From positions 1-64,000 of the IMG/VR virus record IMGVR_UViG_3300044624_002142: 64,000 bases of DNA; one strand, written 5' to 3'. Below, piece by piece: positions 1 to 20,419 of the stretch. This stretch comes from a virus. The position numbers were made by a program, and so were the translations under genes. The notes beneath the pieces are model-generated. The model searched no databases. It saw only the letters and a list, made by a program, of their open reading frames with translations, and was not told the DNA's origin. Every line of letters begins with the position of its first letter. Positions within the stretch are counted from its first letter, which is position 1.

Positions 1-3000
1 ACATCTGGTACTTCGGGTACATCAGGCACAAGTGGTGAATCTGGTACTTCAGGTACATCCGGTACTTCAGGCACAAGTGGTGAATCTGGTACATCAGGTA
101 CGTCAGGTACATCAGGTACATCAGGTACTTCGGGTACATCAGGCACAAGTGGTGAATCTGGCACATCGGGTACGTCAGGCACAAGTGGTGAATCTGGCAC
201 ATCGGGTACGTCAGGTACATCAGGTACTTCGGGTACATCAGGCACAAGTGGTGAATCTGGTACTTCAGGTACATCCGGTACTTCAGGCACAAGTGGTGAA
301 TCTGGCACATCGGGTACGTCAGGTACATCAGGCACAAGTGGTGAATCTGGTACATCAGGTACTTCGGGTACATCAGGCACAAGTGGTGAATCTGGTACAT
401 CAGGTACTTCGGGTACATCAGGCACAAGTGGTGAATCTGGTACATCAGGTACTTCCGGCGAATCGGGTACATCGGGTGTAACTGGTACATCAGGTACTTC
501 GGGCACAAGTGGTACTTCAGGAACATCTGGTACATCTGGTACATCGGGTGAATCCGGTACAACTGGTCTTTCTGGTACATCGGGTCTTTCTGGTACATCG
601 GGTCTTTCTGGTACATCGGGTGGAAATGGAACATCAGGTACAAGTGGTGAATCTGGCACATCTGGTACTTCAGGCGAATCTGGTACATCCGGTACGTCAG
701 GTACATCAGGTACGTCGGGTGTCTCTGGTACATCAGGCACTTCAGGCGAATCTGGTACATCAGGTACTTCGGGTGAATCCGGTACATCGGGTACATCAGG
801 TACTTCAGGTACATCAGGTGTCGCTGGTACATCAGGTACTTCGGGCACGTCGGGTGTAGCTGGTACATCAGGTACTTCGGGTGAATCCGGTACATCGGGT
901 ACATCGGGTACATCCGGTACATCAGGTACTTCAGGTACATCAGGTGTAGCTGGTACATCAGGTACATCAGGTACATCAGGTGTCTCTGGTACTTCAGGTA
1001 CATCAGGTACTTCGGGTGAATCCGGTACATCGGGTACTTCAGGCACAAGTGGTACATCGGGTACATCAGGTACTTCGGGTGTAGCTGGTACATCCGGTAC
1101 ATCCGGTACATCCGGTACATCCGGTACATCCGGTACTTCAGGTGAATCCGGTACATCGGGTACATCAGGTACTTCAGGTACATCAGGTGTAGCTGGTACA
1201 TCCGGTACATCAGGTACTTCAGGTACATCAGGTGTCTCTGGTACATCAGGTACTTCGGGTGTAGCTGGTACATCCGGTACATCCGGTACATCCGGTACAT
1301 CGGGTACATCAGGTACTTCAGGTACATCAGGTGTAGCTGGTACATCCGGTACTTCGGGTGTAGCTGGTACATCCGGTACATCCGGTACTTCAGGTGAATC
1401 CGGTACATCGGGTACATCAGGTGTCTCTGGTACATCAGGTACTTCGGGTAGAGATGGTACATCCGGTACATCCGGTACATCCGGTACTTCAGGTGAATCC
1501 GGTACATCGGGTACATCAGGTACTTCGGGTACATCGGGTGCATCAGGTACATCAGGTACATCAGGTACATCAGGTACTTCAGGTACATCAGGTACTTCAG
1601 GTACATCAGGTGTCGCTGGTACATCAGGTACTTCAGGCACGTCGGGTGTAGCTGGTACATCGGGTACATCGGGTGAATCCGGTACATCGGGTACATCGGG
1701 TACATCAGGTACTTCAGGTACATCAGGTGTCTCTGGTACTTCGGGTACATCAGGTACTTCGGGTGTAGCTGGTACATCAGGTACTTCAGGTACATCAGGT
1801 ACTTCGGGTGAATCCGGTACATCGGGTACATCAGGTACTTCGGGTGTAGCTGGTACATCAGGTACAAGTGGTGAATCTGGCACATCTGGTACTTCAGGTG
1901 AATCTGGTACATCCGGTACGTCAGGTACATCAGGTACGTCGGGTGTCTCTGGTACATCAGGTACTTCAGGTACATCGGGTGTAGCTGGTACATCAGGTAC
2001 TTCGGGTACATCAGGTGTCGCTGGTACATCAGGTACTTCGGGTGAATCCGGTACATCGGGTACATCGGGTGCATCAGGTACTTCAGGTACATCAGGTGTC
2101 GCTGGTACATCAGGTACTTCAGGTACATCAGGTGTCGCTGGTACATCAGGTACTTCGGGTACATCAGGTGTCGCTGGTACATCAGGTACTTCGGGTACAT
2201 CAGGTGTCGCTGGTACATCAGGTACTTCGGGTGTAGCTGGTACATCAGGTACTTCGGGTGAATCCGGTACATCGGGTACATCGGGTACATCGGGTTCATC
2301 AGGTACTTCAGGTACTTCGGGCACGTCGGGTGTCTCTGGTACATCAGGTACTTCAGGTGAATCGGGTACATCAGGTACTTCGGGTGTAGCTGGTACATCA
2401 GGTACTTCGGGTGTAGCTGGTACATCAGGTACAAGTGGTACTTCAGGTACATCAGGCACAAGTGGTGAATCTGGTACTTCGGGTACATCAGGCACAAGTG
2501 GTGAATCTGGTACTTCTGGTACTTCAGGTCAGTCGGGTACATCAGGTACATCAGGTGTCGCTGGTACATCAGGTGTCGCTGGTACATCAGGTACTTCGGG
2601 TGTAGCTGGTACATCAGGTACTTCGGGTGTTGCTGGTACATCGGGTACTTCAGGTGTGGCAGGTACGTCAGGTACATCGGGTCAATCTGGAACATCAGGT
2701 ACTTCGGGCACAAGTGGTACATCAGGTCAATCCGGCACATCTGGTACATCGGGTACGTCAGGTGATGCTGGTACAAGTGGTACATCGGGTGTACAAGGTG
2801 CTCAAGGTGCGTCGGGTATTTCTGGTGGACAAAACTTCTTCTTAAATTCAAGTGTATCTCAAACACCGTCTCCATATAAACAACTTGGAAATCAAACAAC
2901 GGTTGCTTCTGAATTTACTCAATCAATCAATTTGGACGCACTTGAAGCTGATAAATTAGTTGTACAATATATTACTGATGTAGGAACACCAAATACTGTT

Positions 3001-18322: not shown

Positions 18323-20419
18323 ATGAGAATTTGTCAAGTTACACCGGGATTGATATCGATACCACCAAATGGTTGGGGAGCTATAGAAAAGATTATATGG
18401 GAATATAAGCAATCATTGGAAAGAATGGGTCATGTTTGTGACATTAAATATTTGGATGATGTTAAAGTTGAAAACTATGATGTAGTTCATATTCATGTTG
18501 CTAATTTGGCTTTACTTGCACATGAACGTAAAATTCCTTATGTGTTTACCATGCACGATCATCATACTGAAGTATATGGTGATCAGTCTGCATTATATAA
18601 TCAGAATCGTGAGGCGATGGAAAAGTCTATAATTTCCTTTGTTCCTGCCACTCATTTGGTTTCGTATTTTAATAGTAGACGTGTAAAGTATTTGCGTCAT
18701 GGTGCTAACACATCATTTTTTACTCCGGGTGATCCTAATAATAAAAAACATAAGTTGTTGTGTGTTGGAAGAAACGGATTACATGCAAACATGTCATTTG
18801 ACCGTAAAGGGTTTGTTTATGCAATTGAGGCAGCTCGTAAGCATGATCTTGAATTGACTATTGCTGGTCCATCTGCTAATAAAGAGTTTTTTGAAACCAA
18901 CAAAGATTTCAAGCCGTATGACAAAGTGAAATTTTTGTATGATTTGAACGAAAAAGATTTGGTTGAAGTTTATCGTGATCATACTATTTTTCTACATCCA
19001 TCGTCAGTTGAGGCCGGTCATCCTAATTTGACGTTGGTTGAAGCTATGTCATGTGCACTTCCGGTAGTTTCTACATATGATACTGATGCTTTGCCAGGCA
19101 TGGTTAAGATAGAACGTAATGTTGAATCAGTATATAAAGGAATATCTACTGTAATGAATAACTGGCAGCAATTGCGACGAGATGCGTTAACATATGCTAA
19201 ATCGAATGATTGGAACTTTGTTGTTGATGATTTGATCAAAGAGTATAGAAAAGTGGATGAATATCGTATGAAAAACGAACTGAACGATGTTTATGATCAA
19301 ACACTTATGAATGTCAAGCAACACCAGAGTGCGAAGATCACAATTGATTATTGTGATGGAGCTTATATTTCTATAAACGGTGGCGATCCATCAACTAAGT
19401 ACGATTTTGATTTTGTTGATGAAAATACTGGTACTTCATTATTTGGTGGCACGTTAAAATCAAATGAATGGTCTCGGTGTTTTGTGAAGCGTTTTATTCC
19501 GTACAACATTAAAATTAGTTCGGGGTCAAAATTAATTTTGGATAGTAAGTTAGATTTGAAAAACAAAAACGTGTTGATTTGTTTGGATACACGATCATTG
19601 GGTGATTGTATTGCTTGGTTTCCGTATGTAGAGGAGTTTAGAAAGAAACATGGGTGCAATATCACGTGTGCAACAAATTGGAGCACATTGTTTCAAGACA
19701 ATTATCCTGACATTAAGTTTTGTGGATTAGAATGGCATGGTGATTTTTACGCCGTTTACCGAATTGGTTGTTATCCTGATAAACATCGTTCATTTTATAC
19801 ATATAAAGAGGTTACATTACAGAAATTGTCATCTTCGATATTGGGACTTGATCATACAGACATTAAACCAAAAATTTCTGTTAGAAATAAGAATCGTCTT
19901 GTTGAAGATCGTTATGTTTGTTTTGCCACACATTCTACTTCGCAGGCTAAGTTTTGGAATAATCCTACTGGTTGGCAGGAAATGTGTGATTATTTGAATA
20001 GTATTGGTTTGAAACCAATGTTGATTCAGTTGGAAGAAAAGAATGATATTACTAATATTATTAACAAGTCTGGTGCAAAGGATATACACGAAACTATAAA
20101 TTTGTTGTATAACTGTGAATTCTTTGTTGGAATTGGATCGGGGTTATCATGGTTGTCATGGGCATTGAATAAGCCAACGGTTTTGGTGAGTGGATTTAGT
20201 TTACCAGAGAGTGAGTTTTATACACCTTACCGTGTTATTAACAAAGACGTGTGTCATGGTTGTTGGAATGATTGTGATTTTGATAAGGGTGATTGGAATT
20301 GGTGCCCTCGACAAAAGGGTACTGATAGACAGTTTGAGTGTTCTAAACAAATTAGTTCTCAAATGGTTATAGATAAAATCAATGACCTTATTAAGACTGA
20401 AAGTATACGCACCTCTTGA
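18323..20419 (+). CDS. GT4 glycosyltransferase fused to an Aah/TibC-family (autotransporter O-heptosyltransferase-like) domain
   Basis: N-half: IPPNGWGAIE, RKG, FLHPS..EAGHPNLTLVEAMSC. C-half: SLGD.IAWFPY.EEF.KKH.C, QAKFWNNP.GW, FVGIGSGLSWLSWA, SGFS.P..EF.TPYRVIN and the four-Cys CHGCWN...WCPR......FEC iron-finger pattern. Confidence 0.88.
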   Translation: MRICQVTPGLISIPPNGWGAIEKIIWEYKQSLERMGHVCDIKYLDDVKVENYDVVHIHVANLALLAHERKIPYVFTMHDHHTEVYGDQSALYNQNREAMEKSIISFVPATHLVSYFNSRRVKYLRHGANTSFFTPGDPNNKKHKLLCVGRNGLHANMSFDRKGFVYAIEAARKHDLELTIAGPSANKEFFETNKDFKPYDKVKFLYDLNEKDLVEVYRDHTIFLHPSSVEAGHPNLTLVEAMSCALPVVSTYDTDALPGMVKIERNVESVYKGISTVMNNWQQLRRDALTYAKSNDWNFVVDDLIKEYRKVDEYRMKNELNDVYDQTLMNVKQHQSAKITIDYCDGAYISINGGDPSTKYDFDFVDENTGTSLFGGTLKSNEWSRCFVKRFIPYNIKISSGSKLILDSKLDLKNKNVLICLDTRSLGDCIAWFPYVEEFRKKHGCNITCATNWSTLFQDNYPDIKFCGLEWHGDFYAVYRIGCYPDKHRSFYTYKEVTLQKLSSSILGLDHTDIKPKISVRNKNRLVEDRYVCFATHSTSQAKFWNNPTGWQEMCDYLNSIGLKPMLIQLEEKNDITNIINKSGAKDIHETINLLYNCEFFVGIGSGLSWLSWALNKPTVLVSGFSLPESEFYTPYRVINKDVCHGCWNDCDFDKGDWNWCPRQKGTDRQFECSKQISSQMVIDKINDLIKTESIRTS

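Follow-up and report, generated by a model that had tools for sequence, protein, structure and literature searches.

The window analysed here is the first 64,000 nucleotides of the virus record IMGVR_UViG_3300044624_002142, a record of 134,428 bp that is estimated to be about 43% complete. It opens with a giant gene for a collagen-like fibre, followed by two genes for multidomain glycosyltransferases, P0002 and P0003. We conclude that the products of P0002 and P0003 probably act together as a module that O-glycosylates the collagen-like fibre. This reading comes from sequence, with gene neighbourhood and co-occurrence in other viruses both pointing to the fibre as the substrate. The main parts of the locus are these.

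1 to 15828, plus strand: giant collagen-like fibre gene, open from the first base, 5,275 amino acids seen
15888 to 16847, plus strand: P0002, N-terminal GT4 domain (GT-B fold), Pfam PF00534, E = 3.8e-8
16860 to 17552, plus strand: P0002, GT-A-fold domain, amino acids ~325-555, from the predicted structure
17562 to 18320, plus strand: P0002, beta-sandwich (amino acids ~559-657) and possible second small alpha/beta domain (amino acids ~669-805), from the secondary structure of the model
18323 to 19252, plus strand: P0003, N-terminal GT4 domain, Pfam PF00534 (E = 7e-14) and PF13692, PHROG glycosyltransferase families
19319 to 20386, plus strand: P0003, C-terminal TibC/Aah-family (BAHT) domain, TIGR04414, PDB 4rap

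A first-pass annotation, made from the letters alone, had credited the two enzymes with up to four glycosyltransferase domains and placed TibC/Aah motifs in one of these. Four clear domains are present, GT4 and GT-A in P0002 and GT4 and TibC/Aah in P0003, and the family assignment of P0003 is well supported. P0003 (18323-20419) begins 2 nt past the end of P0002 (15888-18320). The TIGR04414 equivalog, with its cut-off at 200, scores it at 335.2 bits (337.3 bits on the genome), and TibC in PDB entry 4rap matches at E = 7.9e-70 across TibC residues 24-387. The model for lipopolysaccharide (LPS) heptosyltransferase I gives 24 bits against a cut-off of 185. Using the PDB alignment, we mapped by hand the residues named in PMC4358343 and verified the letters. 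According to that paper, Asp-110 of TibC is the base, Thr-226, Lys-230, Arg-286 and Trp-305 bind heptose, and Cys-339, 342, 358 and 370 form an iron finger. The catalytic Asp-110 corresponds to D428 in P0003, a residue present without exception in the 71 distinct viral homologues compared. The four-Cys iron finger corresponds to C644, C647, C661 and C673 (kept in 71, 71, 71 and 70 of the 71), and Thr-226, Lys-230 and Trp-305 correspond to T539, K543 and W610, with Trp-305 kept in all 71. At the stereoselectivity site P0003 differs from TibC and has Gly.

The fibre itself is unusual in size and composition. Its 5' end is missing: the open reading frame (ORF) runs off the start of the contig, and since the window starts the record and the frame is open from base 1, we take the gene to be cut by the contig end. 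The stop codon lies 59 nt ahead of the start of the next gene. The 5,275 residues seen include 1551 Gly, 1358 Ser, 1353 Thr and 37 Pro, so that Ser and Thr together make up 2,711 (51%), and Lys is scarce (31/5,275). Gly-X-Y runs cover 4,401 residues (83%), which is 1,467 triplets, and 1,142 of these are GTS. Unbroken runs reach 314, 149 and 799 triplets, and the register holds throughout them. Pfam Collagen (PF01391) matches two pieces of the fibre, at E = 7e-116 and 4e-132, and the PHROG matches are to tail-fibre and collagen-like tail families. Alternative frames are open only within the repeats; the GTS frame alone crosses the inserts to the stop. The record of 134 kb holds no second Gly-X-Y ORF. 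The repeats raise the local G+C to 0.47-0.51, compared with 0.26-0.40 elsewhere in the window. Within the gene, the collagen runs are interrupted by five inserts and closed by a non-collagen domain.

2833 to 3345, plus strand: non-collagen insert 1, 171 amino acids, no Pfam match, weak match to phrog_8766 (E = 0.0033)
4201 to 4701, plus strand: non-collagen insert 2, 167 amino acids, no Pfam or PHROG match
6229 to 6726, plus strand: non-collagen insert 3, 166 amino acids, a similar copy of insert 2 as judged by eye, no Pfam or PHROG match
6727 to 13917, plus strand: longest unbroken collagen run, 799 triplets, 2,397 amino acids
13918 to 14322, plus strand: non-collagen insert 4, 135 amino acids, no Pfam or PHROG match
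14620 to 14991, plus strand: non-collagen insert 5, 124 amino acids, no Pfam or PHROG match
15511 to 15825, plus strand: C-terminal non-collagen domain, 105 amino acids, no Pfam or PHROG match

With a rise of 0.29 nm per residue for the collagen triple helix (PMC8968730), the 799-triplet run would be about 0.7 micrometre long if triple-helical, and the whole collagen part seen would extend about 1.3 micrometres. The DNA units of the repeat are 71-76% alike, and exact repeats reach about 303 bp; because of these, the number of repeat copies is not secure if the contig was built from short reads, and neither is the precise length of the fibre. Neither Pfam nor PHROG recognised a trimerisation domain in the inserts or the C-terminal domain. 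We infer both the triple helix and the position of the fibre on the virion.

The association of TibC with collagen genes is the evidence that ties the enzymes to the fibre. The family is widespread among viral contigs: in a scan of 2.9 million of them we found at least 143 TibC relatives and kept 80 loci. A Gly-X-Y ORF was counted when at least 30 of its residues lay in runs that were at least 6 triplets long. The numbers with such an ORF were as follows.

Viral TibC loci: 41/80 (DNA within 10 kb where present)
TibC clusters at 90% identity: 24/45
TibC clusters with full 10-kb flanks: 13/17
Control, UvsX loci: 0/31
Control, sheath-clade loci without TibC: 3/61
Bacterial TibC loci: 9/80

Among the clusters with full flanks, 15/17 contain a collagen ORF or else a giant ORF, other than the sheath, of at least 1,400 amino acids. 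A homologue of the P0002 GT4 domain lies beside TibC in 51/80 loci, equal to 36/45 clusters. In the reverse direction, loci chosen solely by a (GTS)4 DNA pattern carry TibC in 10/120 and a P0002 homologue in 7/120, and whole records chosen by the same pattern carry TibC in 12/49, with 11 over the cut-off. Co-occurrence and synteny of (GTS)n ORFs with the TibC family, proposed in the first-pass annotation as a check, thus came out positive from TibC to collagen (41/80) and back (12/49). Whole records from the sheath clade show the same contrast: (G-T-S/T)3 repeats are present in 6/8 TibC-positive and 0/11 TibC-negative records, the latter including a complete genome of 368,758 bp.

Gene order is conserved in the closest relatives. 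All five of them (L005-L009) have a collagen ORF, a P0002 homologue, a GT4-TibC fusion and then the sheath gene, and all five contigs break within the collagen gene. Three of these contigs carry an extra ORF of 271-281 amino acids between GT4-TibC and sheath (L005:5068-5910, L006:5180-6022, L007:5362-6174), which the window does not have. In another close relative, G017, the same place (102875-103693) holds a second, partial TibC-family match of 145 bits with one internal TAG. The arrangement extends to Microcystis phage Mel-JY01, which is in culture and in which a collagen ORF of GSS/GTS repeats lies 1.7 kb upstream of a 1,226-amino-acid GT4...TibC fusion; the collagen frame is unannotated and the fusion is annotated as a methyltransferase. 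In its record (PP395634), an ORF of 771 amino acids at the end (L406:22687-24999) continues in frame at the start for 1,016 amino acids (L001:2-3049), with two leftover bases at the end and one at the start forming a codon across the join. Read in this way, Mel-JY01 has one collagen-like gene of about 1,788 amino acids, split where the linear record was opened. Small coding sequences are annotated on the opposite strand across its repeats. In the 735-kb phage LR756501 a collagen-like ORF abuts the two glycosyltransferase genes, and LR756504 has a lone TibC with no collagen ORF within 20 kb. A few TibC loci labelled as bacterial metagenome-assembled genomes of Flavobacteriales, Bacteroides and Pseudobdellovibrionaceae (L330, L331 and L333) also have long Ser/Thr collagen ORFs nearby, and these loci may be phage or prophage DNA binned with bacteria.

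A number of observations weigh against a module dedicated to the fibre. TibC was not found in 37/49 of the GTS-bearing records, including 2/4 complete ones, so GTS fibres do not need TibC. The first-pass annotation had named independent occurrence of the two as grounds for rejection; the association it would deny was found, but strict pairing fails, with TibC lacking from the DNA covered at 110/120 GTS loci and from 37/49 records. From the other side, several TibC loci adjoin giant non-collagen ORFs or the sheath gene, and at 16/19 of the sheath-clade TibC loci the flank examined lacks a collagen ORF. When five such sheath-clade loci were examined as whole records, four had Ser/Thr collagen repeats tens of kb away and one, in a record 31% complete, had none. 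The sheath-clade contrast is itself less strong than its counts suggest. Just 2 changes suffice to explain the distribution of TibC over a sheath tree of 46 loci. Only 2 independent pairs exist, too few to reach significance; 6/8 against 0/11 should be read as about two events, not nineteen. Three close relatives have collagen ends rich in Gly-Ala-Gln, and in the close relative G017 (L236) such an end has few Ser/Thr.

P0003 also departs from TibC itself. T591 replaces the heptose-binding Arg-286, which is Arg in only 29/71 viral homologues, and the beta-hairpin thumb, which builds the dodecamer in TibC, is 8 residues shorter, with two gaps (3 and 5 residues) around it in the alignment and D575/I576 at the tip positions Phe-265/Val-266. 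Matches to SIS_2 and CTP_transf_like were not found in the 134-kb record; of these two families, taken as stand-ins for the heptose pathway, SIS_2 represents GmhA-type isomerases and CTP_transf_like the HldE adenylyltransferase domain. As the record holds about 43% of the genome, this negative does not show absence, and the donor sugar may differ from heptose. Finally, the known substrates of TibC are beta-helices (PMC4358343). They are folded proteins that carry a strand-loop-strand motif, and collagen is not among them.

Two further sets of loci show what else surrounds these enzymes. In other phage lineages, giant non-collagen ORFs of ~2,000-2,500 amino acids with ~21% Ser/Thr lie directly upstream of GT4 and TibC (L025:1-7419, L039:2-6787 and L041:3-5918), at the position taken by the collagen gene in the window; one of them has a tail-spike-like C-terminus. 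In the sheath clade, L258, L260, L265, L275 and L280 have the pair of GT4 and GT4-TibC inside a larger sugar-tailoring set with no adjacent collagen gene. That set includes FkbM methyltransferases, GT2, a DegT aminotransferase, a carbamoyltransferase and, by eye, a small possible acetyltransferase.

P0002 gives rise to the alternative that survives best. Its start at 15888 (ATG), as given in the first-pass annotation, suits the homologues better than the GTG at 15861. The best Foldseek matches of its GT4 domain are the GT4 enzymes HepE, BshA and WaaG (E = 6.5e-11, template modelling (TM) score 0.65 on the target). P0002 has no sequence match in PDB or NCBIfam, and the second half was identified only by folding. 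Folded with 13 homologues, it reached a predicted local distance difference test (pLDDT) score of 84.5 and a predicted TM (pTM) score of 0.80. The GT-A model gives a VIA Z of 14.2 to B4GALNT1 and 13.1 to POMGNT1 and WrtF (range 12-14), with superpositions at a root mean square deviation (rmsd) of ~3 Å across ~160-170 residues. A conserved N-x-D (N117 and D119 of alignment A2) stands at the expected place of the DxD motif, as placed by eye and not by superposition. Two-domain GT-A enzymes fit model residues 1..484 only at an rmsd of 16-19 Å. The segment at 17562..18320 is kept only in the closest relatives.

The fibre could thus be glycosylated with the GT-A domain of P0002 as the primer, while the TibC-like domain acts elsewhere, for example on Ser of beta-rich inserts, or adds a later sugar. 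We consider this division of labour unlikely, but its priming step has a precedent in SgtA, a GT-A enzyme encoded beside bclA3, which primes Thr and Ser of collagen repeats (PMC7157674). The GT-A fold of P0002 is predicted with confidence, and its Foldseek list includes LH3 and COLGALT1, which are collagen glycosyltransferases. The beta-helical nature of known TibC substrates (PMC4358343) would also suit such a division, given the five non-collagen inserts of the fibre. Against it, the matches to LH3 and COLGALT1 have TM scores of 0.2-0.3 and an rmsd of ~20 Å, and therefore the likeness is taken as one of GT-A fold only. Many TibC loci also lack the GT-A part, the match to P0002 being limited there to the first ~320 amino acids, and it is TibC itself that tracks collagen ORFs. 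For the module as we propose it, we infer the priming domain and the sugars used. The TibC/Aah-like domain is attractive as the primer, as a member of a protein-directed family that tracks collagen genes. By the example of SgtA, which starts its glycans on Thr in such repeats, the GT-A domain of P0002 would be an equally good candidate.

The genes beyond the module place it in a tail region. The sheath gene follows directly.

20639 to 23944, plus strand: tail sheath gene, 1,101 amino acids, Pfam Phage_sheath_1 and 1C, phrog_23 (E = 3e-69)

Only the last ~300 amino acids match sheath families, and the first ~800 have no family match; in most relatives the sheath protein is 993-1,328 amino acids long. 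A homing endonuclease, baseplate hub and tape measure come next, and then replication and nucleotide genes. The endonuclease gene (HNH/homing type, 24072-25859, phrog_3339, E = 4e-107) lies in the lowest G+C of the window (0.26). The tailed phage named in the first-pass annotation can be specified as a myovirus, as sheath, baseplate hub and tape measure follow the module. Among the related records are one of 303,564 bp (89% complete) and a complete one of 368,758 bp, and the source virus is a jumbo myovirus. A scan of 15400-20800 for promoters and terminators showed no excess over shuffled sequence (21 vs 25.7 and 2 vs 2.1, respectively); the 2-nt spacing of P0002 and P0003 is as far as we take the case for an operon.

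This position raises a second alternative, that the enzymes modify one or more other virion proteins, such as the long sheath, the capsid or the tail tube, and that the link to collagen reflects no more than a shared tail gene region. A sheath gene follows the module in 35/80 TibC loci (18/45 clusters), the sheath is long (1,101-1,317 amino acids) with ~19% Ser/Thr, and some TibC loci have no collagen ORF nearby. Glycosylation of mycobacteriophage capsids and tail tubes has been reported, as cited in PMC12619734. Yet 49 TibC-negative loci have sheath homologues that are similar both in length and in their share of Ser/Thr (17.9% vs 18.9%). In clusters with full flanks a sheath homologue is found in 4/17 against a collagen ORF in 13/17, and records chosen by GTS are strongly enriched for TibC. 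We regard sheath or other virion proteins as quite unlikely to be the true targets.

A role outside the virion is less probable still. The most familiar roles of glycosyltransferases in phages are glucosylation of DNA and serotype conversion (PMC12619734, PMC9614988), and GT4 and GT-A domains by themselves do not reveal an acceptor. The enzymes might alter the host, with surface proteins, the S-layer or LPS as targets, for instance to shut out superinfection, or might glycosylate phage DNA. TibC/Aah is a family of protein O-glycosyltransferases, P0003 scores far below LPS heptosyltransferase models, and the module sits between fibre and sheath genes, away from replication and nucleotide genes. 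The association with collagen ORFs would be left unexplained, and we judge a host or DNA target very improbable. Least credible is that short-read assembly inflated or scrambled the giant ORF, as its exact repeats and the breaks of related contigs, and of contigs from independent runs, in the repeats might suggest, or that with only 37 Pro it is a disordered mucin-like spacer instead of a triple helix: a spacer would not need Gly at every third residue through 314, 149 and 799 triplets, the frame stays open across five non-repetitive inserts to a stop just ahead of the next gene, the repeat units are merely 71-76% alike, and relatives and a cultured phage have collagen-like ORFs at the same place.

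If the fibre is glycosylated by P0002 and P0003, part of the sugar supply could come from the phage itself. The far end of the window carries a cluster of dTDP-deoxysugar genes.

60628 to 64000, plus strand: dTDP-deoxysugar genes (RmlA, RmlD-like, C-methyltransferase, RmlB)
60628 to 61470, plus strand: RmlA, TIGR01207 at 390 bits, cut-off 361
61486 to 62352, plus strand: RmlD-like reductase, PF04321
62354 to 63613, plus strand: sugar C-methyltransferase, PF08484 with a zinc-binding N-domain, PF08421
63610 to 64569 of the record, plus strand: RmlB, TIGR01181 at 376.5 bits, cut-off 365

The idea that a deoxyhexose might be attached has gained ground from this phage-encoded pathway, in which RmlA and RmlB exceed their cut-offs. 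By sequence, the set suggests a phage-made, C-methyl-branched 6-deoxyhexose, and the genes are candidates for the donor supply of fibre glycans. Elsewhere in the record (117563-118792) there is a GDP-mannose 4,6-dehydratase-like gene with a TIGR01472 match of 309.8 bits, below the cut-off of 415, and epimerase-family matches are present too. A 'cytidylyltransferase-like' gene of Mel-JY01 was considered as evidence for a heptose pathway and dropped, its PF01467 match being weak (E = 3.8e-4).

The end of the fibre differs between related phages and also between close variants of this one. Peptidase_S74 is a mark of phage tail spikes and fibres, and Pfam names it as the intramolecular chaperone for endosialidase. 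Collagen ORFs of close relatives end in this domain (L005, E = 2e-15; L010, E = 2.6e-16). Pfam did not find it (PF13884) in the last 105 amino acids or the inserts of the fibre, and those 105 amino acids have no homologue among the longer proteins of a large protein collection. In contigs from DNA runs X14 and X19 (lake water), positions 15498-15843 are swapped for 331 unrelated letters, whereas the glycosyltransferase genes of the same contigs differ at just 22/4,857 letters. The lake-water label comes from 19 DNA runs that contain at least half of the window's words. Because the C-terminal domain is replaced while the glycosyltransferase genes stay nearly identical, it is likely, judging from these variants, to be an exchangeable distal tip. 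The X14 and X19 contigs also insert 27 letters, or nine extra repeat residues, behind 15480. One RNA library yields short contigs that agree with both glycosyltransferase genes at every letter, a weak hint of transcription, since DNA may be present in such a library. Parts of the stretch were left uncovered in the RNA run, and we attach no meaning to these gaps.

Parts of this arrangement have precedents. P0003 resembles TibC and Aah, whose family is so far known solely as modifiers of bacterial adhesins, in sequence and in its catalytic and Cys residues, and like theirs its gene adjoins that of a large, repetitive, Ser-rich surface protein. It differs in being phage-encoded and fused behind a GT4 domain; its neighbour is a collagen-like fibre and no autotransporter is present. 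On the collagen side, C. difficile SgtA, encoded beside bclA3, decorates collagen repeats with O-GlcNAc on Thr and on Ser as well (PMC7157674). In BclA, a filament protein of the Bacillus spore surface, the sugars are believed to support the hydration network of the helix (PMC8968730), and BclA bears rhamnose-containing oligosaccharides (PMC6222408). The phage locus shares with these systems a Thr-rich collagen-like filament and an adjoining dedicated glycosyltransferase gene, and it carries Rml genes. Unlike the phage fibre, with its more than 1,400 triplets, the bacterial filaments have tens of triplets in GPT repeats with proline, and their primer is a GT-A enzyme with no TibC-family member. 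Mimivirus has low-proline collagen-like proteins and L230, a fusion of lysyl hydroxylase and glucosyltransferase (PMC9614988). This, too, is a virus that encodes a low-proline collagen and its own glycosyltransferase. L230 glucosylates hydroxylysine, whereas the targets here would be Ser and Thr, no hydroxylase is seen beside the genes, and the virus is a tailed phage.

Tail fibres with collagen repeats are familiar in phages, for example from prophage collagens (PMC3368898), and the fibre matches PHROG families of such proteins. Mycobacteriophages provide phage-encoded virion glycosylation, with glycans on the C-termini of capsid and tail-tube proteins, as cited in PMC12619734. In these accounts collagen tail fibres and virion glycosylation are not reported together, unlike what we propose. 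We found no published description of a pairing of the TibC family with phage collagen in a literature search whose coverage leaves most subscription journals outside, and none of the phage papers retrieved mentions the TibC family. Spore collagen filaments with a neighbouring transferase, the Mimivirus collagen glycosyltransferase and mycobacteriophage virion glycosylation are already known. The novelty lies in the presence of the TibC family in phages, as a fusion with GT4 that is linked to genes for Ser/Thr collagens poor in proline.

A possible course of events can be outlined. The fibre chains would be made late in infection in the host cytoplasm, where the TibC/Aah-like or the GT-A domain would place a first sugar on Ser and Thr hydroxyls of the repeats. 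The GT4 domains would then lengthen the glycan, with donors taken from host sugars and the phage dTDP-deoxyhexose genes. The sugars might hydrate, stabilise and shield a triple helix that lacks proline, and the swappable C-terminal tip would touch the host or particles. The first-pass annotation had pictured a glycosylated virion filament of this kind; TibC/Aah identity, a tailed phage, co-occurrence and deoxyhexose genes all speak for parts of that picture. Its TibC-like priming step, its heptose and the place of the fibre on the virion are putative. A bolder version, which we hold only tentatively, is that the TibC/Aah family has a second natural class of substrates. In many tailed phages a TibC-like domain would then directly hyperglycosylate Ser of GTS collagen, and the fused and neighbouring transferases would extend the glycan with phage-made deoxysugars, perhaps C-methyl-branched ones. 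The virion would thereby carry a proline-free collagen filament of more than 1 micrometre, stabilised by sugar, which could catch hosts or particles in lake water. The idea is directly testable, because the cultured phage Mel-JY01 has the same arrangement.

Should glycosylation of the fibre be confirmed, an enzyme that decorates (GTS)n in the bacterial cytoplasm would be a tool for glycosylated collagen-like materials. The fibre would also be an independent second instance of virion proteins that a phage glycosylates with its own enzymes, and a natural answer to how a nearly proline-free collagen helix can be stable across hundreds of nanometres. The autotransporter heptosyltransferase family would gain collagen repeats as an acceptor and phage virions as a setting, both of them new to it.

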